11,088 nt of DNA from an uncultured archaeon (GCA_964565725.1 CAZMGA010000019.1:1-11088); one strand, 5' to 3'. Counted from the stretch's first letter, positions 125 to 11,088 are shown. A program made the numbers and translations. The notes: generated by a model from the letters alone, not told the origin.

Positions 125-1669
125 TTAAACTAAATATGAATTTACCGCATTCGAATAAATAGTATATGACTCGGGGTTATGAACATTTTGATTAGTATAA
201 GAACCATTAAAAACAGTATTTAATATATTATCATACACATCAATATATTCATCAATTAAATTACCTTTTTGAGATTTAACCCAATCATTTATTGCTTTTC
301 TAGTAGATATATTTTTGCCAGGAGTTATAGACAAAGCAATAACTTTTGTATTATTTTTTTTTGCTAAATTATATATTGCTGTTAAATTTTTTTTAACGCC
401 AGATATATTTATAGAAGTTGATCCAATATCATTTGCACCACCCATAACAAAAATATAATCATATTTTTTTCCTGAATTATATTCAGCAGTTAATTTATCT
501 AACATCCATTTAGTGCTTTTTCCAGATTCTGCAATTTTAGTAATTTCGTATTTAGATTTATCATAAATATTATTTAATTTAGGGTAATAACCAACAGTGA
601 TAGAATCTCCTAATAAAAGTATTTTAGTTTTTTCATTAGTCGTTTTTACTGTTTTTGTTTTATTTAAGAAAAAAAAATCATATATAGAATTATAAAATTT
701 AGGCCAATTAAAATTACTAGAACTAGAAGATGATTTTTTCCACACATTGTAATCATTATTAGAAATTTCTGCTAATCTTGTTTCATTATTTATATTAAAT
801 TCAATATATTTAGAATCTAAAGATGCTTCACAAAATAATTTATCCCAACCATCTACTTCAATATAAACAAAAAAATCATTTACTTTATTTATTTTATAAC
901 TGGAAGAAGTATCCCCAACTCTTTCATTATATTTTTTATTTAAAATGATTTTATCATCATATTCAGAAGGTTTAAGTAAATAAGTTTTACATTGAGTTGT
1001 AGTACCTATTGTACCTTTAATATATGTAGAATAGTTATCTAAATCATCTAATTTAATTAAATCCTCATCAGTAATTTTCAAAATTTTTCCTTGTGAAAAA
1101 CCAGTTTGACAAACAGCTTTACCATATTCATTAACAATTACTATTTTTCTGTCATCTTCAGAAATATTAGCTTTATAGGGTTTTACAGATTGATTATACC
1201 CATATGTTCCTTTAAAATTAAAACCTGATAAATCATTATTAATATTACATTCTTGAATATTTAGAGGATCAAATCTATAAATATAAAATCCTTCTTTATT
1301 ACTTTGTGTTTCAAATTTTATACATCTATAATGTATTTCTAAATTATTTTTAATTTTAAAACACATATAATTATTATTTAATTTATTAGATTGACTTGCA
1401 CTACAAACTTCATTATTAGAATTCCAAGGATAAATTACAGTATAATTATTATTAGTATTATTTATTTTATACAAAACATATGGCGGACCAACATTTTCAT
1501 TAAAATTTTTAAAATTTTTAAATTCTCTAGTAACTATAAAGTCAGATATATCTAAATCATTTCTATAATTACAGTCCCAAATATCTAAAGAGAATACAAA
1601 AGAAAATGACAATATTGTTAACAAAACTAAAAAAATATAATTTAATTTATTAAAACTCATAAATATCAA
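125..1669 (-). CDS. Secreted SGNH/GDSL-family hydrolase (esterase type) with an N-terminal region of three Cys-bracketed repeats
   Basis: 514-codon ORF ending in TAA (125-127). There are two candidate starts: TTG 1667-1669, which overlaps the upstream TGA as TTGA, and ATG 1658-1660, which lies 5 nt after that stop. The N-terminus has a signal-peptide-like h-region (NYIFLVLLTILSFSFVFS). The C-terminal third carries the SGNH blocks: I ILLLGDSITVG (Ser356, codon 602-604), II ESGKS, III FVMGGANDIG (Asn413) and V NVHNP (His497, codon 179-181). A poly-Ser linker (res 313-318) separates the two halves. Confidence 0.9.
   Translation of the reverse strand: MIFMSFNKLNYIFLVLLTILSFSFVFSLDIWDCNYRNDLDISDFIVTREFKNFKNFNENVGPPYVLYKINNTNNNYTVIYPWNSNNEVCSASQSNKLNNNYMCFKIKNNLEIHYRCIKFETQSNKEGFYIYRFDPLNIQECNINNDLSGFNFKGTYGYNQSVKPYKANISEDDRKIVIVNEYGKAVCQTGFSQGKILKITDEDLIKLDDLDNYSTYIKGTIGTTTQCKTYLLKPSEYDDKIILNKKYNERVGDTSSSYKINKVNDFFVYIEVDGWDKLFCEASLDSKYIEFNINNETRLAEISNNDYNVWKKSSSSSSNFNWPKFYNSIYDFFFLNKTKTVKTTNEKTKILLLGDSITVGYYPKLNNIYDKSKYEITKIAESGKSTKWMLDKLTAEYNSGKKYDYIFVMGGANDIGSTSINISGVKKNLTAIYNLAKKNNTKVIALSITPGKNISTRKAINDWVKSQKGNLIDEYIDVYDNILNTVFNGSYTNQNVHNPESYTIYSNAVNSYLV
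128..628 (-). other. Segment encoding the SGNH catalytic domain of the downstream hydrolase (res ~348-514)
   Basis: The GDS, G, GxND and H blocks occur in canonical order and spacing (see the CDS entry). Confidence 0.85.
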
Positions 1670-4600
1670 CTTAATCCCGTAGATTTCAAATCATTATTAT
1701 ATGCTAAAATAAATGGAGAATTATTTTTTAATGTTCTATGATCACTTAAACCAATATAACCCCAATCAAAACCACTTCTAGGATCACCTTTTGCAGCTAA
1801 TTCAAAATGTGCAATAACAGCAGTATCTGAAATATCTTTTATTAATCCTCTATCTTTTATATCTTTTAATAATTTCTTTAAAGATTCATGTTGTTTTAAT
1901 GTGTAAGGATAGCCTCCAAAATTTATACAATGTCTTAAATCTATAGCTATTGAAAGAGTATTTATAAGAATATCTTTACAACTTTTATCATTTGTTTTAC
2001 AACCCGCATGATTTGCACCATAATCTTCAGAAACTAATTTAAAAATTTCTCCAGAACAACCTATATAATAATGACTTGAAGTTTTTCTTGCGTCCCAATC
2101 ATGAATACAATTATTTACCGCAACATCATCAGTATAAGTAGATTTTTCCCAACCACCATCGTGTAAAACTACAAAACCATATGCTGCTCTTTTAGTAGTG
2201 TTTTTAGCAATTCTTTTATCATCAAAATATTTAGTATTAACCTTAATATAATTAGTTTGTAAAGGCATTACAGAATCTATAGATATTAAATTTTTAGATA
2301 ATTCAGGTCCTAATTTTGTTGTTATAGGTTTAGGTAATGCAGAATAACTTAAACATTTTTCTGATTCATTATTTAAATAATTTAAATACTCAGTCCAATA
2401 CAAATCAATAGATTGATTTTTACTTTGATTTCCTTTACATTTATTAGTATCTGGTATATTTCCAGAACTATCTACACAACCAGGGCCCACAACATAAGAT
2501 TTTACTGTTAATTCTAAATCTTTTTTGTTAGTATAAATAGAATATAATAAAGAAGCTTGATACATAATAGATAGTTCTGCTTTTGTTCTAGGATCTTTGT
2601 TTAATATCCCTTTACCATCATATAATAAACCACCTTCTTTTTGATACATTTTTCCAGTGTTACAAGTTAAGTCATACAATTCATTAAAATTTTTAATATT
2701 TAATTCTTTAAAATCATCACTATTAAAATTAAATACACTTGAAAATTCAGAATATTTTCCTTTAATAATATTTTTAGTAAGATCACAAAAAGTTTCAGGC
2801 TTAAGTTGTCCCAAACCAACAGCATAACTTTGAGAAACAATCATAGGATTAAATCTAGATTCTTTATATGTTTGTGCAATTAAATTTTTTGCATCCATTT
2901 TACCATTAGTTTTTTGTTTTAATATATCTCCATATTTAATAAATAAATCTTTATAATGAGTACAACCTATAAGTGGCTGTGTTGCGTTTGTTGAATTGGA
3001 AGATGAAGTACTTGTAGGAATTGGAGCCAAAGTATTAGCCCCACTATTGTCAATTAAACCATCTGAAATATATCCTTTAGTTATATTTTCAGTATTACAA
3101 AAGTTTTGTAATATTTTGTTAGATTCTAATTCTTTAACAGTACCAATATATTTATTTTCATTATTTGGATCTACAGTTAAAATCATAGTATAATAATGAT
3201 TTCTAACAAAATTATCTGGCAATATAAATTCAATACTTTTTGCAGAATTAAAACTTTCTTTAGTCATAAGTTTAGATGTTCCTTTATATGCTAAATCTGC
3301 TAATACTCCTGCAACTGCACCTCTTAACATACCTTTTGCAAAATTCCATATTTTTGTTCTTGTCAATGTTTTTGATTCTACATCTTTAATCAAAGCTTTT
3401 AAAGCATCATCATCTATATCGTCTACAACAGTAGCTGGTGGTGTATTAGGTAAATTTTTAATTTTTAATTTTAAAACATCTCTTTCGGCTTGTATTTTTT
3501 TAATTTCAGTATCAATTTTTAAAAAATCATCATTTAATTGTTTAAGATTAGGACAAGGTGGTGTTTTTCCCATACAAGCTTTTATTTGGTTTGTTAATTG
3601 ACCTTTCTTTGGACCTAATTTTGTTGTTAATTCTTTATTTATTTCATTAATTCTTTTTACATCTGAAGGATCTGGTGTTGATGCAGTTCCTGGAGTAGTA
3701 ATTGTTTTAGGATTTCCAATTCTATCCCAAGTATCCTTATTAGTTAAATTTATTTTTTCATCTATAATTTTAATAAGATCATCCAAACTGCTTTTATATT
3801 GTTTATTATGTTTGTTTATTACTTCTGCAAATTTTGGATCTGTATTATAAAACTTTTTCAATAATTCATTTTTACTTGTTACATTATTAATTATATCTTT
3901 ATTTGCAGGATCGGATAATTTTTTAACAAACATGTCTATAAATTCATCTGCAAGTTTATTTTGTGAATAAGTGCCATTAGCTAAATTTTTTACACTTGTA
4001 TAACCTACTTCTGCACCTCTTACACCTGCATTTACTGTTGCACCTGTTGCAGCTGCCTCTAATTCATTTAAATAGGAAATATCTGTACTATCTTTTAAAG
4101 CTTTTTGAGCATCAGCAGAATCTTCATAATCTTCAAACATCCAATCAGTCAATATAAAATCATTTAATGAATCATGAACTTTATCTAAAGCATTTCTACT
4201 AGAATTTCCAGCATATACATTTAATCTATGATTTGCATAAAGTGTGGAACCTGCAAAAGATCCAACTATTACGCCACATTCAATACCTGCTTCAACCCAT
4301 AATGCAGGACTCATAGCTTTTCCTTTAAAAGCTAATTCTGCAAGCATACAAACCCCTGCAGATACTCCACTAGATACTCCTACTCTCAATCCCAAACCTT
4401 TATTTAAAGTTTCTACTACTGCTTTAGTATTATTTGCAGCACAATAATTATTAGAAACTTTACCACTAAAAGAAATATTTTTATTTTGTGCTAATTTATT
4501 TAAAACTTCACAACTGTTTATTCCTTCTTTTTCTCCTTCCCAATAAATTAAAGCTGAATAATTCTTATTACTTAAATCTGAATTTAATATACCTCCTAAA

Positions 4601-7600
4601 TAGGCTTCAGGAGATACTCCACAAGGTTTAAATTTAACAATTAATTGTTTTTCTTCACCATTTGTAGGTGTAAAAATAATTTTCAAAGGTAAGTTTTCCG
4701 AGTATGAAATTGCTTTATTAGGATCAGTAAAATTAACTCTTAAAACATATTCTTTAGTAGAAGCATTTACAAATGAAACATCATTTACTTCATTACCTAT
4801 ACTATCAATTATTTTTGCAGAATAGCCTTCCATTTGTGCAGGATAAAATGAAAATGAACCATAACCTGTTTTTGTCCCAGATATTGTAAAAGTACAATCT
4901 ATATCACCATAATCTACATTTAAAACATTACATCCTTTTAATTCATATTGTCCAGTAGTAGAATCTGATGGAGATACTACTTCAAATTCATTATTTTTTG
5001 CATTATAACAACCAGTAAAATTTCCTTGTAATGCAGATTTAATTACATTAACTAAATCCTTTTTATCTTTATCTTGTTCTAAATTGAAATTTTCATTAAT
5101 TACTACTACTACATTATTATTATCAAATTTTAATTTGATTAGATTTTTTCCAACATCCCCTTTGGTTAAAAATAAAGTATTATCTCTATCATCCAATACT
5201 CTTTCTGTACCAAATAATTCTTTTGAAACAAAATCAGATAAAGGTTTAAAAGTATATTTTGTATCATAATAGACAAATGCAGGTTTAAAACCAAAAGCAC
5301 TATCTGCTAAAATTGTAGTATCTAAAGGCAAAAATAAAGCAGCATTGTTTACAGTTCTTTTACATTCTTCTGTATTTTCCTTTTCAAATTTAACTATTAT
5401 ACTATAATTATCTGATTGTGCTATGTTATCAACCACATTAAAAAAACCATTTAATGTTACAGTATATTTTCCACAACCTTTAAAATTTGGTTCAATAAAT
5501 AATACATTATAATTTGAAGTAGATTTCATATTTTCAAAAGAATAATTATTAGGCAAAATATTTACTGTTTTTAAATTAGTTTTTATTTTTTCTAATAAAA
5601 CATTATTAAAATATTCATTACTCAAATTATCTTCCATTAAATATACTACAAATGTAGAATCTTCTACCCCTATATTTCCAAATTCACATTTTGATTCAGC
5701 ACAAGTCTTTATATCTTTAGAATTCACAGCCAATTTATTTTTATATTCTTTAACATAACCATTTACTTTTTGAGATATAAATTCAGATGCTAATTTTCCA
5801 TCACAATAAGCATTACTACAATCCATAGATTTTGCAACTTTAGGATATAACAAAGATGTATCTTCGGAAGTATCACAATCTTTAATTGTTTTTTTAGTTG
5901 TAGGTTCTTGTGAACTACTTACTGCACTATCTCCAAATTTAAATTCGTAATTTATTTTTTTAGCATATGTTTTGTTTGTAGATAAGCCTCTTGCAAAAAC
6001 ATCTATAACTGAAGAATCATCTTGTTTTTCTTTAACAGCTACAACAGATTTTATTTCTGTTCTTTGCCCTGGTGTTAAAACTAAATTATTAGAACTTAAT
6101 GTCAAAATATTTTGTGTAGATACATTTTTAACAGATGGTAAATTTAATCTAACAGATTCTGCACAATTATTTATTACTACAATGTTTGAAGTAGTAGCAT
6201 TTATATTTAATTTTGTACTTTTAAATTTTAATATATTTTGAGTACCATTAGCATAAAATTCAACACATGTTGATGAGGATATTTGTGCAAATAAAGGTAC
6301 ATACTTAACTATTTGTGAATTATCTGCAACACTTGTTCCTTTTACTACCAAAACATATTCTGCAAAAGCACTATCAAAACTTAAACCTTCAACACCAAAA
6401 GATATTATTGAATTCATTCTTTGTTGTGGCCCCAATATTTGCAAATTAGTAGGTCTTGGTAAAATTTTCATTGCTACATTAGTTTTTTTAATTTGTGTTG
6501 TTCCATCCCAATTAGTAAATGGATAATCATTACCTAAAATAAAACTATCAGGATTATAAAAATTAGAAACTGTTGAATTTCCAATATTACTTAAACCCAT
6601 AGCATTTCCACTAGTCATAGTTTGATCTATATAATTATTATATTGCTGTGCGGATATTGTAATATTTTTTAAATTAGTAGTGCCATTATTAAAAATTGAT
6701 AATACAACTGAATTTAATTGACCAGTAGTAATATTATGTAATTGACTTGGTGAAACACTAATTATTAAATCTCCAAAACTATGAACTAAATTTAAAGTAA
6801 CAGGTAATTGTTTTTGGAAATATTCTGTATTAAAATTAATAAATGCTTCTACATTTACATTTGAAGAAATTAATGATTTTAAAGAGAAAGTATATTTTAC
6901 TAATTTAGTATCTCCTTTTTTTATAGAAGTTGTTGGTATTTGTAAATCAATTATTTCTGCTAAATTTACGTTTGATCTTAAAACTAATTCTGGATTTAAA
7001 TTAGAAATGTCAACTTCACAATTATTTTGTATTTGAATTTCACCAGCCACTTTTTGATTTACTCCATCATACAAAATCAAAGGCAATTTTGAAGGGTTTA
7101 TAGCCAAACAAGATGCATCCAAATTACTATTTGCAACGTAATTTATATGAATTACTTGTCTTACTATTTCTCCACCATCTATAATACCGGTCAAAGCAAT
7201 ATCTTGATCTCCATAAGCCAAATCATTTTCATCATAACTTACATTTACTATAATTTTAGAAGTTTTACTAGACATCAAATTAGTAGTAGAAATTCTATAA
7301 TCTATATTAAAATTAGTAGCATCATCTCTCATTATTTCTAAACCAATGTTCTTTAAATTAAATTTAGAAATATTTTTAAAAGGAATTTCATAACTTCTTG
7401 TTTTCATACCAACAGGTATTTTTATTTCAATTTCTGTATCAACATCAAATACACCAGTTCTAGTAATTAAAAATTGACCACTTGTAGAATTATGTCCTGT
7501 AGCCGAAACTTTATAATTATATATTCCGGATGGTAATTCATTAATCACATATTTTCCGTTTAATCCTAAATTATTTGTATTATTACCTTCTATATATTGT

Positions 7601-10410
7601 ATTACAGCATTATCTGAACTTACAAGATTTATTTTAGCATTAGAAATTTTGTTAGAACTATCAGAAATATCAAAAATAATTTGTTGACCTATATTGAAAG
7701 TATTTGCATTTAATTTTACTGTTAAAGGTTTTTGATTTTCAATATTAAAATTAAATTCTTTATTCATATTTAGTTCTTTAGAACTCATCAATATATTTCC
7801 TACACCCACATCATTAGTTCTAAAATATAATCTATATTTTTTATGTTCTCCTTTTAAGATTGACAAAGGAATATTCAAAGTGTTAAAGTTTAAATCTAAT
7901 GGTGAAAAATTAACTACATCATTACTAATATTATTTAATAATAATTTGTTAGTATTGTTATTTGTATTAAAATCAATATTAACATTTAAAGTTTCCAAAG
8001 CATAAAAATCAAAATCTAAAGCGTAAGTTTCATTTTTTATTGCTGAAAATGAATCATATTTTTTAAAACTATCAGAATATGAATAAGAATAACATAAATT
8101 TTGATTACAAGCAAACAAATCAGAAAAAACATTTATTGTTTCTTTTTTTGTTAAAGAATATAATCTTAACAATTTATTAGAATTTATTTCTGTATTTGGT
8201 TCACTATGATAAAGACCATCAAAAGAATTTACTCTATAATCTATATTGATATTTTCTAAATCTTTTGCATCATCTAATTTAATTTTTACTTTAATTTCAC
8301 TTAAACCTTTAGGATTATTAAAATACAAATTAACCCATTTATTTTTTATCCCGGGTCTTCCAAAAACTTTCAAATCTTTTACATTTGATTCTGTTGAATT
8401 TGGATTATAATGTAAACCATATTCTTTTATAGAATTAGATGAAATTACAGAATTAATACTATAAGGCAAGGAAATTATAGGAGTATCTTCTCCAACTCTA
8501 ATATGTACTTCCCCTTTATCTTGATTTCCAGGCCAAATTACAGTAAATTTTAAAAAATAATAATTACCTAATTTAACTCCATTAAGTTGATTTCCTTCTA
8601 AATCATAAACACCATCAAAACTTATTTTTGGATTTTTAGAACGTTCAAATTCATTTAATAAAACTTCCATTTCTTTTTCAACAGTCATTATTTTAGAATA
8701 AGATTCGTCATCATAAATTACATTTATTTCTACTTCTTTTGAACCGTTAGGATAAAATTCTATATTTCCTTCTAAAGTATTTCCATCAAATAATTTTGTA
8801 TTTCCTGACAATATTTGAACTTGTGCATTTTTTAATGGGTCTCCCAAAACATCATAAAAATAAACTTTACTCACATCTTCATTAGGAGTCATAACTAAAG
8901 AATAATTAGTTTCACCAGCGTTTAAGTCTAAATAATCTGACCCATATAATTTTTCACTTTGTGCACTAACCAATATTTTTTTATTAGCTTCTAAATTAAA
9001 AAATAAAGCGCCAGAAATAGATGTTTGTGTTTTTGTTAAATAAATAGGCAATGGAACATCATCTTCCATATAATATGCACTCACTTGAGATTGTACTGGT
9101 TTATTATCTATATCTACAGTAAATAATTGTAATCTTGCAATATTGTTAGGAGCCATTTTAGTTAAAACAATTGTTAATTGTTCTGTATTTGGGGTAATAG
9201 TTTTTACAGATGGAAAATAATTTCCAAATTCAGCAGTAGAAACATAACCACTTCTTTTTACATCTAAACCATTAAAATCTACAATTCCAAAAGCGTTAGT
9301 TATTTGTGTTGAAATTAATAACCCATTATCAGAATATAATGCAACATTTACACCTACTAATTCTTTATCTGTTTCATCTTTAACAATAACTTTTAAAGAG
9401 GTCCCACCAATACTTAAATTAATATTTATTGATTCTGCATCAGAAGTTAATTTTAAATTTCTACCATAATCTTCTGAATCCCATGTGATATATCCAGTTT
9501 TACTAACAACATATCTTACTATTGTTCCTTTCGGTATATTTTCTAATGCTTTTCCTTCATTATCAGTATAAATTTCAGAAAGTTTTTGTTGTGTTTTTGA
9601 ATTATATATTGTTATTAGCACATCTTTCAAAGGTTGATTATTAGAAGAAATATTAAAATTAATTGTTCCGGATTCTCCATTAGAAATTTCTTTTGGTTCT
9701 AAACCTAAATCTTTTAAGCCATTACCCGAAACACTTATTTGGTCATATAAATGATATCCATCTTTACTGATTATTACTTTTAAAGGTTGATTTAAAGGCA
9801 CATCTGTTAAATTTACATTACCAGATTCATCAGAAACACCAGAAAATAATAATGTGCCATCATCAGAAAAAATATTTATATCCGCATTAGGTACAAAGGT
9901 ATTATCTTTATTATCTAATAATCTAAAAGTCATTGAACCAGTTTCCAAATCTTTGCTTAAAACAAAAATTTGAGTTAGTTCTTTTGAAGAAATAACTATT
10001 TCTTCAGGTCCTACTAAATAATAATCTTCTAAATAAACATTAACTGTTAAAACATTTCCAATTTTTGTTTTAAATTTTATATTTTCAGAGCTCACTATTC
10101 CATTATAAACTACTTCTTCGCCAGATTTTAAAGTCAAAGTTATATTTGAAAGGGGATTTTGATCTTCATCTACAAAACTTAAAGACATATTTATTGTGCT
10201 ATTTACTGAGAAAAATAAAATTAAAAGAACGATTGCTACAATTAAAATTAAAATTATTAAATTAAACCACATTGGTGGAATTCCATGATTTTCTAAAAAA
10301 TCATTATATCTGTCAATAGGCAATCCTTTTTCTGATAAAAAGTCGCTCATAGCGTAATATTTTTCTTCTAATTTCGAATTAATATTTCTAAAAAAATCTC
10401 CAATCCCCAT
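1666..10410 (-). CDS. Giant (2,914 aa) N-terminally membrane-anchored surface protein: CarboxypepD_reg-like beta-sandwich repeats, unknown central domains, glycine-zipper hydrophobic pair, C-terminal lytic transglycosylase (SLT) + N-acetylmuramoyl-L-alanine amidase (Amidase_2)
   Basis: Uninterrupted ORF from ATG 10408-10410 to TGA 1666-1668, with an SD-like GAAAGGTG 7 nt upstream. Residues 1-47 are polar and residues 48-69 form a hydrophobic helix (WFNLIILILIVAIVLLILFFSV). Six ~80-aa repeats span res 74-585 and a seventh spans res 895-984, with signatures such as SDESGNVNLTDVP..KDGY, TDNEGKALENIPKGT..KTGY and NGKYVINELPSGIYNYKVSATGH. Glycine zippers lie at res 2005-2058. SLT motifs are present: E2517-S, GLGQL 2532-2536 and SYVVGPG 2638-2644. 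Amidase_2 motifs are present: FVVLH2750, SSHYYIGCSGEIFKLV, NTLSIAIDL and AH2868FELAAKGD2876P. My residue numbering was cross-checked by counting from both ends of the protein and against codons in the DNA. Confidence 0.95.
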   Translation of the reverse strand: MGIGDFFRNINSKLEEKYYAMSDFLSEKGLPIDRYNDFLENHGIPPMWFNLIILILIVAIVLLILFFSVNSTINMSLSFVDEDQNPLSNITLTLKSGEEVVYNGIVSSENIKFKTKIGNVLTVNVYLEDYYLVGPEEIVISSKELTQIFVLSKDLETGSMTFRLLDNKDNTFVPNADINIFSDDGTLLFSGVSDESGNVNLTDVPLNQPLKVIISKDGYHLYDQISVSGNGLKDLGLEPKEISNGESGTINFNISSNNQPLKDVLITIYNSKTQQKLSEIYTDNEGKALENIPKGTIVRYVVSKTGYITWDSEDYGRNLKLTSDAESININLSIGGTSLKVIVKDETDKELVGVNVALYSDNGLLISTQITNAFGIVDFNGLDVKRSGYVSTAEFGNYFPSVKTITPNTEQLTIVLTKMAPNNIARLQLFTVDIDNKPVQSQVSAYYMEDDVPLPIYLTKTQTSISGALFFNLEANKKILVSAQSEKLYGSDYLDLNAGETNYSLVMTPNEDVSKVYFYDVLGDPLKNAQVQILSGNTKLFDGNTLEGNIEFYPNGSKEVEINVIYDDESYSKIMTVEKEMEVLLNEFERSKNPKISFDGVYDLEGNQLNGVKLGNYYFLKFTVIWPGNQDKGEVHIRVGEDTPIISLPYSINSVISSNSIKEYGLHYNPNSTESNVKDLKVFGRPGIKNKWVNLYFNNPKGLSEIKVKIKLDDAKDLENINIDYRVNSFDGLYHSEPNTEINSNKLLRLYSLTKKETINVFSDLFACNQNLCYSYSYSDSFKKYDSFSAIKNETYALDFDFYALETLNVNIDFNTNNNTNKLLLNNISNDVVNFSPLDLNFNTLNIPLSILKGEHKKYRLYFRTNDVGVGNILMSSKELNMNKEFNFNIENQKPLTVKLNANTFNIGQQIIFDISDSSNKISNAKINLVSSDNAVIQYIEGNNTNNLGLNGKYVINELPSGIYNYKVSATGHNSTSGQFLITRTGVFDVDTEIEIKIPVGMKTRSYEIPFKNISKFNLKNIGLEIMRDDATNFNIDYRISTTNLMSSKTSKIIVNVSYDENDLAYGDQDIALTGIIDGGEIVRQVIHINYVANSNLDASCLAINPSKLPLILYDGVNQKVAGEIQIQNNCEVDISNLNPELVLRSNVNLAEIIDLQIPTTSIKKGDTKLVKYTFSLKSLISSNVNVEAFINFNTEYFQKQLPVTLNLVHSFGDLIISVSPSQLHNITTGQLNSVVLSIFNNGTTNLKNITISAQQYNNYIDQTMTSGNAMGLSNIGNSTVSNFYNPDSFILGNDYPFTNWDGTTQIKKTNVAMKILPRPTNLQILGPQQRMNSIISFGVEGLSFDSAFAEYVLVVKGTSVADNSQIVKYVPLFAQISSSTCVEFYANGTQNILKFKSTKLNINATTSNIVVINNCAESVRLNLPSVKNVSTQNILTLSSNNLVLTPGQRTEIKSVVAVKEKQDDSSVIDVFARGLSTNKTYAKKINYEFKFGDSAVSSSQEPTTKKTIKDCDTSEDTSLLYPKVAKSMDCSNAYCDGKLASEFISQKVNGYVKEYKNKLAVNSKDIKTCAESKCEFGNIGVEDSTFVVYLMEDNLSNEYFNNVLLEKIKTNLKTVNILPNNYSFENMKSTSNYNVLFIEPNFKGCGKYTVTLNGFFNVVDNIAQSDNYSIIVKFEKENTEECKRTVNNAALFLPLDTTILADSAFGFKPAFVYYDTKYTFKPLSDFVSKELFGTERVLDDRDNTLFLTKGDVGKNLIKLKFDNNNVVVVINENFNLEQDKDKKDLVNVIKSALQGNFTGCYNAKNNEFEVVSPSDSTTGQYELKGCNVLNVDYGDIDCTFTISGTKTGYGSFSFYPAQMEGYSAKIIDSIGNEVNDVSFVNASTKEYVLRVNFTDPNKAISYSENLPLKIIFTPTNGEEKQLIVKFKPCGVSPEAYLGGILNSDLSNKNYSALIYWEGEKEGINSCEVLNKLAQNKNISFSGKVSNNYCAANNTKAVVETLNKGLGLRVGVSSGVSAGVCMLAELAFKGKAMSPALWVEAGIECGVIVGSFAGSTLYANHRLNVYAGNSSRNALDKVHDSLNDFILTDWMFEDYEDSADAQKALKDSTDISYLNELEAAATGATVNAGVRGAEVGYTSVKNLANGTYSQNKLADEFIDMFVKKLSDPANKDIINNVTSKNELLKKFYNTDPKFAEVINKHNKQYKSSLDDLIKIIDEKINLTNKDTWDRIGNPKTITTPGTASTPDPSDVKRINEINKELTTKLGPKKGQLTNQIKACMGKTPPCPNLKQLNDDFLKIDTEIKKIQAERDVLKLKIKNLPNTPPATVVDDIDDDALKALIKDVESKTLTRTKIWNFAKGMLRGAVAGVLADLAYKGTSKLMTKESFNSAKSIEFILPDNFVRNHYYTMILTVDPNNENKYIGTVKELESNKILQNFCNTENITKGYISDGLIDNSGANTLAPIPTSTSSSNSTNATQPLIGCTHYKDLFIKYGDILKQKTNGKMDAKNLIAQTYKESRFNPMIVSQSYAVGLGQLKPETFCDLTKNIIKGKYSEFSSVFNFNSDDFKELNIKNFNELYDLTCNTGKMYQKEGGLLYDGKGILNKDPRTKAELSIMYQASLLYSIYTNKKDLELTVKSYVVGPGCVDSSGNIPDTNKCKGNQSKNQSIDLYWTEYLNYLNNESEKCLSYSALPKPITTKLGPELSKNLISIDSVMPLQTNYIKVNTKYFDDKRIAKNTTKRAAYGFVVLHDGGWEKSTYTDDVAVNNCIHDWDARKTSSHYYIGCSGEIFKLVSEDYGANHAGCKTNDKSCKDILINTLSIAIDLRHCINFGGYPYTLKQHESLKKLLKDIKDRGLIKDISDTAVIAHFELAAKGDPRSGFDWGYIGLSDHRTLKNNSPFILAYNNDLKSTGLS
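1741..2208 (-). other. Segment encoding the Amidase_2 (T7-lysozyme/PGRP-type N-acetylmuramoyl-L-alanine amidase) domain (res ~2735-2890)
   Basis: The putative Zn ligands are H2750 (codon 2161-2163), H2868 (1807-1809) and D2876 (1783-1785). The H-to-D/C spacing is 8, as in T7 lysozyme His122/Cys130. The conserved SSHYYIG..G.I..LV and N..SIAIDL blocks are also present. Confidence 0.85.
2476..2964 (-). other. Segment encoding the SLT (family-1 lytic transglycosylase) domain (res ~2483-2645)
   Basis: NLIAQTYKE2517SRFNP contains the catalytic Glu-Ser (Glu codon 2860-2862). AVGLGQLKPETF matches the GLMQ motif, and SYVVGPG matches the AYNxGxG motif. Confidence 0.85.
4237..4398 (-). other. Segment encoding paired glycine-zipper hydrophobic helices (res 2005-2058)
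   Basis: The sequence is GLGLRVGVSSGVSAGVCMLAELAF-KGKAMSP-ALWVEAGIECGVIVGSFAGSTLY. Helix 1 contains G2011xxxG2015xxxG2019 and helix 2 contains G2042xxxG2046xxxG2050xxxG2054. This region is a visibly GC-richer island in the DNA. Confidence 0.7.
8656..10191 (-). other. Segment encoding six tandem ~80-aa CarboxypepD_reg/PEGA-like beta-sandwich repeats (res 74-585)
   Basis: Each unit opens with an alternating hydrophobic strand plus D/N..P[LV]..[AV].[VI].[LI], for example LSFVDEDQNPLSNITLTL, LKVIVKDETDKELVGVNVALY and VYFYDVLGDPLKNAQVQIL. Most units contain a (T/S)DxxGxxx[FL] turn and a [KT]xGY strand. The repeats are diverged at the DNA level. Confidence 0.75.
10204..10269 (-). other. Segment encoding the single N-terminal transmembrane anchor of the giant protein (res 48-69)
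   Basis: A 22-residue uncharged hydrophobic run, WFNLIILILIVAIVLLILFFSV. It is preceded by a 47-aa charged tail and is the only such run in the first 2,000 residues. No signal-peptidase-like site follows it. Confidence 0.8.
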
Positions 10411-10417
10411 AAATATG

Positions 10418-10425
10418 CACCTTTC
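10418..10425 (-). promoter_or_regulatory. Shine-Dalgarno-like ribosome-binding site of the giant gene
   Basis: The minus strand reads GAAAGGTG-CATATTT-ATG. GAAAGG and GGTG are both complementary to the conserved 3' end of 16S rRNA, and the 7-nt spacing to the ATG is appropriate. Confidence 0.55.
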
Positions 10426-10461
10426 TAAATAATATTATATATATAAACATTTATAAAAACA
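10426..10461 (-). promoter_or_regulatory. Possible promoter in the 51-nt cls-giant gene spacer (TATA-like / -10-like A+T tract)
   Basis: The minus strand reads TGTTTTTATAAATGTTTATATATATAATATTATTTA. It contains TTTATATA (archaeal TATA-box-like) and TATAAT (bacterial -10-like). In a genome this AT-rich such strings are weak evidence. The giant gene may equally be co-transcribed with cls. Confidence 0.25.
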
Positions 10462-11088
10462 TTACAATAAAGGAGACAATAACCTAGCAAATGATTGCTT
10501 AAATTTAGTAAAAAAACTTTGTTTTCTCAAATCTACAATTTTTTGTTCTATTGTTTCATTTAAATCGTTTAAATAAATTTTTGTACAATTATCAGAAAAT
10601 TTTGAATTAAAAACAAAAGCTGTAACTTCAAAATCTAAATCTAAACTTCTAGAATCTAAATTTGTAGAACCTATAGCAACTACATCATCAGAAATAACTA
10701 ACTTATTGTGTAAAAAACCTTTTTGATATAAATAAATTTTAATTCCTGAAGACATTAACTCACTAAAATAAGTTTTAGTAGCCAAATCTACCCACAAACT
10801 ATCTGATTTTTGAGGCAAAATAATTTTTACATCTACGCCTTTCAAAGATGCAGATTTTAATGCAAACAACAAAGTTTCATCGGGTATAAAATAAGGTGTT
10901 TGAATATACAACTTTTTTTCTGAATTAGTAATTAACGAAAATAAAACAAATTTATTATTTGACCATTTTAAATCTGGCCCAGATGGAGTAATGTGAATTA
11001 CTGAATCTCCAAAATTATTTATTTTTGGATATAACTCTTTTGAATATATATTTTCCTTTTTAACAAAAGCCCAATCTTTAACAAATAT
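10462..11088 (-). CDS. cls: Cardiolipin synthase / phospholipase D-family phosphatidyltransferase, C-terminal part (5' end outside window)
   Basis: The supplied ORF begins at an internal TTG (10909-10911). My hand translation shows the same frame stays open for 59 more codons to the window edge (IFVKDWAFVKKENIYSKELYPKINNFGDSVIHITPSGPDLKWSNNKFVLFSLITNSEKK-LYIQTPYFIPD). The SGPD and TPYFIPD blocks are typical of Cls enzymes. An HKD motif is present, HNKLVISDDVVAIGSTNLDSRS (His codon 10708-10710), which would be the second of the two PLD motifs. The stop is TAA at 10462-10464. Confidence 0.85.
   Translation of the reverse strand: MFVKDWAFVKKENIYSKELYPKINNFGDSVIHITPSGPDLKWSNNKFVLFSLITNSEKKLYIQTPYFIPDETLLFALKSASLKGVDVKIILPQKSDSLWVDLATKTYFSELMSSGIKIYLYQKGFLHNKLVISDDVVAIGSTNLDSRSLDLDFEVTAFVFNSKFSDNCTKIYLNDLNETIEQKIVDLRKQSFFTKFKQSFARLLSPLL

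Follow-up and report, generated by a model that had tools for sequence, protein, structure and literature searches.

Why would an archaeon, a cell without murein, keep a gene of about 9 kb whose product ends in two murein-cleaving enzymes? The question is raised by contig CAZMGA010000019.1 of an uncultured archaeon (assembly GCA_964565725.1), a complete NCBI contig of 11,088 nucleotides (nt) with a G+C content of about 0.24, which in its full length forms the window analysed here. Most of it is taken up by a single open reading frame (ORF) for a giant protein. We favour, with some reserve, the view that this protein is a contact-dependent fibre of a DPANN-type archaeon, which carries a kit of enzymes for the degradation of bacterial murein. 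The features on which this view is built are collected in Table 1.

The ORF fills 78.9% of the window, in agreement with the 79% given in the first-pass annotation, which was made from the sequence alone; the strand, which was not given there, is the minus strand. At the base composition of the window a stop-free run of this length has a probability of about 1e-130, and about seven full-length homologues, at 35-38% identity, are found on archaeal contigs in conserved chromosomal synteny. Because so long an open frame is improbable and full-length homologues exist at this level of divergence, we take the gene to be real and under selection. Its product is identical to protein P0001. The domain order proposed earlier holds: a 47-amino-acid (aa) tail, one transmembrane (TM) helix, about 1,930 aa of beta-sandwich and other modules, a Gly-zipper hairpin, a helical spacer, an SLT domain and an Amidase_2 domain. 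The protein had also been said to lack a sorting signal, wall-binding repeats and an autotransporter barrel, and indeed LPXTG, PGF-CTERM, SLH, LysM and autotransporter families were not reported by Pfam at E<=0.1. There is only one strong TM helix, at the N-terminus, and most of the protein is best placed outside the cell, as was claimed before. The distribution of the 35 Cys residues, many of them invariant and all located beyond aa 768, is as expected for an exported protein. An enrichment of Asn-X-Ser/Thr sequons for N-glycosylation had to be dropped, since the 46 sequons observed match the 44+/-6 found in shuffled sequences.

Table 1. Features of the giant-gene locus; positions are counted from the first nucleotide of the window.
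Feature	Position (nt)	Strand	Extent	Evidence or remark
Giant ORF, candidate surface-anchored murein-hydrolase fibre	1666..10410	-	2,914 aa	ORF list and translation; full-length homologues
Conserved N-terminal tail, predicted cytoplasmic	10270..10410	-	aa 1-47	Motif FF..IN....KY...SDFL.EKGIP...YNDFLE.HGIP
Sole strong TM helix, predicted signal anchor	10207..10269	-	aa ~48-68	Kyte-Doolittle 3.63; Hessa-type dG ~-7.5 kcal/mol
Array of ~5-6 prealbumin/CarboxypepD_reg/Ig-like beta-sandwich domains	8611..10206	-	aa 69-600	Pfam, whole protein and tiles
Conserved central region	6211..8610	-	aa 601-1400	Block GEVHIRLGED...GIKNKWVN; CarboxypepD_reg-like domain at aa ~920-990
Cys-rich module	4531..6213	-	aa 1400-1960	Beta-sandwich, long helix and alpha/beta domain, two further beta-sandwiches
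Gly-zipper helical hairpin	4234..4398	-	aa 2005-2059	GxxxGxxxG helices at aa 2005-2030 and 2031-2059
Lys-rich helical spacer	3343..4233	-	aa 2060-2356	Helices in the DSSP assignment of the AlphaFold2 model, low confidence
Third small-residue amphipathic helix	3286..3342	-	aa 2357-2375	Resembles hairpin helix 1 (AGV..LA[DE]LA[FY]KG)
Small conserved beta domain, spacer-enzyme junction	3121..3243	-	aa ~2390-2430	Motif LPDxFV...Y.G.VKE
SLT, GH23 family-1-type lytic transglycosylase	2341..2958	-	aa ~2485-2690	Pfam SLT 33.3 bits, cut-off 21.3
Amidase_2, AmpD/AmiD-type zinc N-acetylmuramoyl-L-alanine amidase	1780..2175	-	aa 2746-2877	Pfam 48.9 bits, cut-off 26
Downstream secreted protein	125..1660	-	511 aa	N-terminal signal sequence, three weak repeats, C-terminal SGNH/GDSL esterase at nt ~224-613
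Intergenic spacer, putative own promoter and ribosome-binding site	10411..10461	-	51 nt	A/T-rich TATA-like boxes TTTTTATAAA and TTTATATATATAA
Upstream fragment, bacterial-type cardiolipin synthase	10462..11088	-	C-terminal 208 aa	TIGR04265, 7e-59; co-directional with the giant gene

The evidence that carries our view lies first of all at the C-terminus. Both murein-cleaving enzymes that had been placed there score above their Pfam cut-offs and keep their catalytic residues, and both look active. The SLT domain, a lytic transglycosylase (LT) with its best stretch in Pfam at aa 2499-2554, has the catalytic residue E2517 in a K-E-S context and a GLGQL motif at aa 2532, which are kept in the five SLT-bearing homologues; its family profile aligns to 'ESSFNP...GLMQ' of MltC, and SYVVGPG at aa 2638 is a loose match to the third motif of the AYNxG type. 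It is the best-folded part of the C-terminal AlphaFold2 (AF2) model, with a pLDDT (predicted local distance difference test) of 60-90, and gives weak Foldseek matches to the Cj0843 LT (E 0.2, probability 0.98). The Amidase_2 match covers positions 7-129 of the 131 in the profile. Residues H2750, Y2781, H2868, K2874 and D2876 are invariant in six family members; the last three align to the 'GH...K.DP' zinc-site motif of AmpDh2, and H2750 falls outside the printed PDB alignment and inside the Pfam envelope. A phmmer search with the last 484 aa against the PDB sequences gave no match, and solved relatives emerged with family profiles only, the best for Amidase_2 being AmpDh2, AmiD, AmpDh3 and AmpD (E 4e-11 to 2e-8).

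A third activity appears to be encoded next door. The downstream gene (product P0027) is co-directional with the giant gene and starts 5 nt after its stop codon. Its product matches Lipase_GDSL_2 (35.4 bits, cut-off 32.9), is matched by the head profile of the giant family and contains the SGNH blocks GDSIT and GGAND. Other lineages have a homologue of this esterase fused to the giant protein as its SGNH head, and the GDSIT and GG(A/T)ND blocks are common to the two. A domain that is fused elsewhere and encoded next door here provides a fusion/fission ('Rosetta-stone') link between the two genes. Among solved structures, the SGNH domain is closest to Bacteroidales GDSL proteins and to a sialate O-acetylesterase, not to lipases. 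Because the domain is fused to, or encoded beside, murein hydrolases and its GDSL relatives resemble carbohydrate esterases, we infer that it is probably an O-acetyl-peptidoglycan esterase of the Ape type. Residues 25-340 of the downstream protein consist of three Cys-containing repeats of about 105 aa, which align with scores of about 4 standard deviations above shuffles. No Pfam family covers these repeats, which may be a binding or docking module. An N-terminal carrier domain common to this protein and the stand-alone amidase P0022 was considered and rejected, since no similarity was found.

LTs need a free C6 hydroxyl on N-acetylmuramic acid (MurNAc), which SGNH-fold O-acetyl-peptidoglycan esterases supply, and AmpD/AmiD-type amidases use the products of LTs as substrates. 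The three activities would thus form one coherent pathway. The substrate is presumably the bacterial wall, because the producer is an archaeon without murein. It is well supported that the protein is made with an N-terminal signal anchor, which keeps the 47-aa tail inside while the remaining ~2,850 aa are exported. The exported part begins with beta-sandwich domains and Cys-rich modules and ends in the GH23-type LT and the AmpD/AmiD-type zinc amidase, and the partner SGNH esterase, a secreted protein, is encoded in the same apparent operon. In the proposed mechanism the esterase would strip the O-acetyl groups that block LTs, after which the transglycosylase would cut the glycan to leave 1,6-anhydro-MurNAc ends and the amidase would remove the stem peptides. 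With the head held off the archaeal surface by the long stalk, the sacculus of a contacted bacterium could be opened locally, in the service of attachment, of access to the bacterial membrane, or of feeding.

The same chemistry could also serve a tethered scavenger, not aimed at a living partner, whose surface-held head draws stem peptides and amino sugars from dead bacteria and from loose fragments of peptidoglycan. An LT acting with an AmpD/AmiD-type amidase would yield free peptides and anhydro-muropeptides, which are useful nutrients; the stand-alone secreted amidase (P0022) and the esterase (P0027) suggest diffusible enzymes; and for Pacearchaeota it has been suggested that amino acids are drawn from the peptidoglycan of dead bacteria (PMC11537232). 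If digestion sufficed, however, a stalk of 1,900 aa, a conserved tail and a hairpin/spacer platform would be costly for a small genome. Moreover, genes for muropeptide transport or catabolism are absent from the conserved neighbourhood, and the platform occurs without enzymes in Micrarchaeota-type relatives, which points to a scaffold for cell-cell interaction. We consider scavenging rather unlikely.

A striking property of the family is the exchange of its heads on a scaffold that is conserved from end to end. The window protein has the SLT and Amidase_2 pair, P0002-P0005 and P0259 combine SLT with an SGNH esterase, and P0006 and P0016 carry a GH73-like glucosaminidase with Amidase_2. Fragments with SGNH-Amidase_2 (P0020) and tandem SGNH domains (P0019) were also found, as was the stand-alone secreted Amidase_2 protein P0022. 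Judged by their domains, all head variants appear to be directed at murein. In P0007 and in P0008, the latter labelled Micrarchaeota, the N-terminal motif, the stalk and the Gly-rich hydrophobic helices are present without recognisable enzymes. These enzyme-less relatives imply that the scaffold serves a purpose independent of the enzymes, of which cell-cell interaction is the simplest, and that the wall enzymes are add-ons. In the proposed mechanism the hairpin and the variable spacer would be an older platform, held in common with the enzyme-less Micrarchaeota-type relatives, whose part could be oligomerisation, a second anchor, or membrane interaction.

Swapped heads on a conserved delivery scaffold resemble polymorphic toxin systems, and the protein might be an antibacterial weapon, a contact-dependent or shed bacteriolysin used against competitors without any symbiosis or feeding. 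A producer without murein would need no immunity gene, and experiments have demonstrated bacterial killing by other archaeal peptidoglycan hydrolases, homologues of which are prominent in Nanoarchaeota (PMC12352652). Yet genome-reduced DPANN archaea are thought to depend on a partner, and a gene of ~9 kb seems expensive for competition alone; besides, the gene lies in conserved housekeeping synteny and not in a variable island. We regard a pure weapon as improbable, with the proviso that it overlaps with the contact-dependent fibre (predation is killing plus feeding) in a way that sequence cannot separate.

The identity of the producer follows from the contigs of the homologues (17-63 kb), of which flanks of 20-30 kb around four homologues were scanned for gene families. 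The conserved gene order is prolyl-tRNA synthetase (ProRS), in some cases adenylosuccinate synthase, RelA/SpoT, cardiolipin synthase, the giant gene, and then a gene for ~380 aa on the opposite strand, followed by genes for a ~165-aa protein, a ~1,460-aa surface protein, PAC2, Alba and cysteinyl-tRNA synthetase. NCBIfam identified an archaeal thermosome (751 bits), Alba and a type-I (archaeal-type) ProRS on these contigs. Among the relatives, the label 'Candidatus Diapherotrites archaeon' is given to P0017, which clusters with P0259 at 90% identity, and 'Candidatus Micrarchaeota archaeon' to P0008 and P0013, which are distant and have no enzymes; a further relative bears the label 'uncultured archaeon'. 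The window itself contains no phylogenetic marker gene. Together these markers and labels bear out the DPANN-type host suspected in the first-pass annotation, and they place the homologues on archaeal contigs, where they are not the ordinary autolysins of murein-containing bacteria. The producer thus appears to be a low-G+C DPANN-type archaeon in which the giant gene is chromosomal and vertically inherited. A scan of one genome per GTDB species gave one locus, and the JGI metagenomes gave two.

Could the substrate then be an archaeal polymer, either the pseudomurein of a methanogen host or the envelope of the producer itself? An association between Woesearchaeota and methanogens has been proposed (cited in a passage of PMC9723730), and there has been speculation that SLT-like domains in the giant proteins of Omnitrophota attack pseudomurein (bioRxiv 10.1101/2023.11.21.568195). 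Pseudomurein, however, contains beta-1,3-linked N-acetyltalosaminuronic acid and no MurNAc-L-Ala amide, which according to textbook chemistry makes it unsuitable for GH23 LTs and for Amidase_2. The alternative heads (GH73-like, SGNH and AmpD-type amidase) are all murein-directed as well, genes for wall synthesis, including those for murein, are absent from the 20-30 kb syntenic flanks, and homologues of archaeal peptidoglycan hydrolases are rare in pseudomurein-making lineages (PMC12352652). An archaeal substrate therefore strikes us as very improbable.

An origin from a virus or mobile element, as a tape-measure or tail-lysin-like protein or as a wall hydrolase for conjugation of the VirB1/PrgK type, would account in general terms for the combination of a hydrophobic Gly-rich segment, a helical region, an LT and a second hydrolase, which resembles tape-measure proteins and tail lysins as well as the hydrolases of Gram-positive type IV secretion systems (T4SS). 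Weak PHROG matches were indeed obtained ('lytic tail protein' at 1.8e-4, and endolysins), but these are confined to the enzyme domains, and 2.9 million viral contigs yielded no relative. No viral or T4SS genes were detected in the 20-30 kb flanks of the homologues: capsid and tail genes are absent nearby, and VirB4, VirD4 and relaxase families were not found among the called genes. The housekeeping synteny, moreover, is kept across lineages that are merely 35-38% identical. A phage tape-measure or tail lysin was consequently rejected, there being no viral homology past the enzyme domains and no tail-gene module, and so was a T4SS wall hydrolase of the VirB1/PrgK/TraG type, there being no conjugation cluster around the four homologues. 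A viral or mobile origin is scarcely credible.

At the other end of the protein, the tail is among the best conserved parts, with many invariant columns across six homologues, and its motif can still be recognised in the Micrarchaeota-type relatives P0007 and P0008, which have an overall identity of just 19-24%. The Pfam scan gave no family for these 47 aa. A cytoplasmic partner could dock on the tail, or the tail could direct the export or insertion of giant DPANN surface proteins. The strong TM helix that follows (TM1) is likewise present in all homologues.

The stalk beyond TM1 is built largely of beta-sandwiches. In aa 69-600 matches were found to CarboxypepD_reg, bMG3, Big_1, SpaA and MG4-like families, single tiles mostly remaining under the curated cut-off, and whole and tiled Pfam scans gave weak to moderate CarboxypepD_reg, prealbumin, Ig-like and macroglobulin-like matches at aa 155-430, 515-600 and 900-1000. 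Most of aa 600-2000 gave no Pfam family in either kind of scan. Identity to the homologues is highest in aa 600-800, and the block of the central region given in Table 1 is the most conserved of the protein. In the Cys-rich module, the AF2 model of which has a mean pLDDT of 74.7, beta-sandwiches flank a long helix and an alpha/beta domain with the motifs YCDG, GCGKY and LFLPxD; the first two motifs and the Cys residues of the module are invariant. Foldseek searches of this model against PDB and BFVD/viral structures returned generic Ig-like sandwiches only (TM-score ~0.15), the alpha/beta domain gave no Foldseek match, and a profile of aa 1400-1960 found nothing among the PDB sequences either. 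If some 18-20 domains of about 100 aa were extended, the stalk could span several tens of nanometres.

Between the stalk and the head lies the hairpin, described in the first-pass annotation as membrane-insertion-like, a point at which that model is at its weakest. Its two GxxxGxxxG helices do exist, each with one invariant Cys (C2021 and C2045), and they are joined in all six homologues by a short turn that contains a conserved Gly-Pro and 1-3 Lys. Their hydrophobicity, however, is marginal (Kyte-Doolittle 1.57 and 1.36; dG +4.9 and +6.0 kcal/mol), and the Lys-rich turn fits the membrane of the producer equally well. In every homologue the helices have a dG of +2 to +6 kcal/mol, versus -7 to -8 for TM1, and contain Glu or Arg; by hydrophobicity they would not be called TM segments. 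Three interpretations are open: (a) a soluble helical core of small residues that packs with the similar third helix, (b) a true hairpin in the membrane of the producer, with the beta-rich region as a giant loop and the enzymes near the producer, and (c) a latent membrane-active element meant for the target cell. The enzymes would be outside the cell in both (b) and (c), because a hairpin contributes an even number of helices. The earlier placement of the enzymes at the distal, free end is an inference and not an observation, because the hairpin may equally anchor in the producer's own membrane.

Interpretation (b) amounts to a doubly anchored loop, in which the ~1,930-aa beta-rich region lies between two membrane anchors and the enzymes are held near the surface on the spacer. 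The Lys-containing turn with its Gly-Pro obeys the positive-inside rule if it faces the cytoplasm, and small-xxx-small motifs are, according to textbooks, typical of tightly packed TM hairpins. Set against this, the helices fall well short of the insertion thresholds and have charged residues inside, and the third helix, similar and amphipathic, suggests a soluble bundle of three helices. A double anchor is possible, although we doubt it. A bolder proposal builds on interpretation (c): the scaffold, made up of tail, anchor, stalk, hairpin and a spacer of adjustable length and held in common with enzyme-less Micrarchaeota-type relatives, could be a cross-domain breaching machine, whose exchangeable head strips the wall of the partner, after which the fusion-peptide-like hairpin inserts into the partner membrane as a pore or fusion bridge. 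It would give the archaeon direct access to the bacterial cytoplasm, and in lineages that live on bacteria the wall removed by the head would be murein; we give this idea little credence.

The helical spacer is the least conserved part of the protein (identity 10-17%) and has a clear heptad coiled-coil stretch, by heptad scan, at aa ~2286-2326 only. Its length varies across homologues from 267 aa (P0004) to ~620 aa. The long extreme is P0259 (locus L008, 10001-19543), in which the distance from hairpin to head is ~620 aa versus ~350 aa in the window, the rest of the protein being of constant length. The variation suggests selection on reach or spacing, with the spacer as a length-setting helical linker. 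The third helix (Kyte-Doolittle 1.0) has conserved G2360, G2364 and Y2375, and the small beta domain behind it has invariant P2398, D2399, F2401, Y2407, Y2421 and E2427, with three AF2 strands at a pLDDT of ~70. An exhaustive HMMER search of 1.84 billion representative sequences with a profile from the hairpin to the end of the protein did not find the hairpin/spacer module outside the family, the remaining matches covering the SGNH part only.

Several observations weigh against the contact-dependent fibre. Contact between this archaeon and a bacterium is a proposal drawn from sequence, not from imaging or experiment, and the 11-kb window is the whole contig, as a result of which the full gene content of the organism is not visible. 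A relevant passage of PMC11291902 states that all cultivated DPANN archaea have archaeal hosts. An outer membrane covers the sacculus of diderm bacteria, and the giant protein has no demonstrated means of getting through it. The charges that flank TM1 are insufficient on their own to set its orientation. As for the head, the AF2 model of aa 1930-2914 (985 aa, built on a 6-sequence alignment) has a mean pLDDT of 47.6, with 30-45 around the hairpin, and a model of this quality fixes neither the position of the head nor its relation to the hairpin; the hairpin, the spacer and the amidase are unreliable in it, Foldseek searches with it were uninformative, and it speaks neither for nor against a buried hairpin or colicin-like bundle. 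Finally, two catalytic residues deviate. In block V of the downstream SGNH domain the His is present and the acid residue is off its canonical position ('QNVH'), and in the amidase the general-base Glu of AmpD-type enzymes (SIGIE motif; Glu in AmpDh2) is replaced throughout the family by Asp (D2824, in 'IAIDL'/'IGIDL'). Since T7 lysozyme is active without this Glu, the amidase may be active too.

How far is such a protein new? Large extracellular LT proteins have been published repeatedly, according to the relevant passages of PMC8204110, PMC9723730 and PMC10936187, and the claim of the first-pass annotation that the architecture matches no described system was too strong. Castelle 2021 (PMC8204110) describes fam00969, a family restricted to Pacearchaeota and Woesearchaeota whose members reach 3,000 aa and have a murein-like LT domain, and proposes for them attachment to bacterial walls or the degradation of such walls; earlier sightings of LT-domain proteins in Rinke 2013 and Castelle 2015 are cited there. 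Vigneron 2022 (PMC9723730), in the part concerned, reports a 'large lytic murein transglycosylase' and puts forward a predatory, 'vampiristic' hypothesis, and the corresponding part of Zhang 2024 (PMC10936187) repeats the observation of large LT proteins. As these passages present them, the fam00969-type proteins share with ours a DPANN origin, a length of up to ~3,000 aa, a predicted extracellular location, a bacterial-type SLT/GH23 domain and a proposed bacterial-wall target. With its 2,914 aa, single N-terminal anchor and SLT domain our protein matches fam00969 by description, the comparison being one of descriptions and not of member sequences. Genomes of Pacearchaeota and Woesearchaeota encode fam00969; the relatives found here lie in an archaeal, DPANN-like context and are labelled 'uncultured archaeon', Diapherotrites or Micrarchaeota. 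In their relevant passages the fam00969-type papers report the LT domain and the size only. The tail and anchor, hairpin, spacer, beta domain, Amidase_2, SGNH partner and head swapping are not described in the searched passages of these three papers, nor is the synteny with a bacterial-type cardiolipin synthase and RelA/SpoT. The general finding is therefore already published, and a giant protein of this kind is no surprise to DPANN specialists; the resolved anatomy and the head swapping are what is added here.

Other known systems resemble the fibre in part. The SPEARE proteins of Nanohaloarchaeota (Hamm 2019, PMC6642349) are likewise giant, mostly extracytoplasmic DPANN surface proteins with a single anchor and a cytoplasmic portion, which combine adhesion-type with degradative or toxin-like domains and have been proposed to breach the host envelope. 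They differ in having serine protease, laminin-G, BC-toxin-like and restriction-endonuclease domains, a mostly C-terminal anchor and archaeal hosts, whereas our protein has murein hydrolases, an N-terminal anchor and no sequence relationship to them; serine protease, laminin-G and type III restriction-endonuclease families were not found in it at E<=0.1 in whole and tiled Pfam scans. The predatory Omnitrophota giant proteins are close in concept, without any relation in sequence or domain content. Bacterial autolysins such as staphylococcal Atl, and T4SS hydrolases of the PrgK/TraG type with SLT and CHAP domains, also have two murein-cleaving domains per polypeptide, and the latter share an N-terminal membrane anchor. 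The enzymes of Atl are an amidase and a glucosaminidase, the same pair as in the P0006/P0016 head. These bacterial proteins act on their own wall, are 300-1,300 aa long and come with wall-binding repeats or conjugation operons; the giant protein, in contrast, belongs to a murein-free producer and has a 1,900-aa stalk, no wall-binding repeats and no T4SS genes nearby.

In logic the family is similar to the CdiA-like polymorphic toxin fibres, which are long surface filaments whose scaffold is conserved and whose C-terminal effector can be exchanged. It lacks, however, their two-partner secretion (TPS), FHA, VENN and Rhs domains, is anchored by a TM helix with no outer-membrane partner, and would use as effectors wall hydrolases that work outside the target, with no immunity gene. 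For the enzymes themselves the closest solved relatives, with the same catalytic motifs, are AmpDh2, AmpDh3, AmiD and the MltC-type LTs of the Gram-negative periplasm. There, too, a natural pairing exists, in which anhydro-muropeptides made by the LT lose their peptide to the amidase. Compared with them, the enzymes of the giant protein are of low identity, have the Asp in place of the AmpD Glu, and are fused to each other and to an archaeal scaffold.

Whether some DPANN archaea live on bacteria is an open question, for which this family appears to be the most concrete molecular lead, because a murein-free organism keeps a syntenic gene of this size, and the exchangeable tip of its product is in every case equipped with murein-specific enzymes. 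What had been a vague annotation ('large LT protein') is now resolved into parts that can be tested: the catalytic residues, a soluble head (aa ~2440-2914), the partner esterase, for which a place in the order of reactions is predicted, a stalk rich in epitopes, and the hairpin. If the contact model is true, the fibre would represent a cross-domain parasitic or predatory interface, and a source of new wall-lytic enzymes from archaea.

Upstream of the giant gene, the intergenic spacer could hold a promoter and ribosome-binding site of its own: besides the A/T-rich boxes listed in Table 1, direct reading of the sequence reveals GGTG 7 nt upstream of the ATG. A scan for sigma-70 promoters gave no signal above chance, a scan that is irrelevant for an archaeon. 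Beyond the spacer, cardiolipin synthase (TIGR04265) precedes the giant gene in the same orientation on five of six homologue contigs examined, L001 being the one without it; in the window, L002 and L006 it is the immediate upstream neighbour. It was located at 8520-9953 in L002, 2347-3744 in L003 and 5566-7008 in L008; the full-length L002 protein scores 413.8 bits against a cut-off of 290. The nearest named relatives are bacterial, at ~40% identity (Omnitrophica, Phycisphaerales, Syntrophales), and a bacterial-type RelA/SpoT gene lies just past it. A link between cardiolipin synthase and the fibre is conceivable, for example in the handling of bacterial phospholipids.

Two genes downstream of the giant gene, at a position beyond the end of the window contig, the homologue contigs encode the ~1,460-aa protein (L001 20647-25062, L003 15674-20053, L008 21260-25627). 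No Pfam family was found for it; it has an N-terminal signal peptide and a C-terminal TM helix with a basic tail, a layout typical of archaeal S-layer and surface proteins. In L005 (CAZQQS010000017.1, 'uncultured archaeon'), the sole locus among the GTDB representatives, a run of Ns lies inside the giant gene at ~9900-10030, and the apparent split into ORFs of 1,978 and 1,023 aa just before the hairpin is a scaffold gap, not biology. At the other edge of the window, positions 1-122 hold the end of a convergent plus-strand ORF, the last ~40 codons of which encode a low-complexity acidic/basic tail (KKDKKDEKKKDNLNLDLDLDSGSNQNETTDDDFELNLDLK, followed by the stop).

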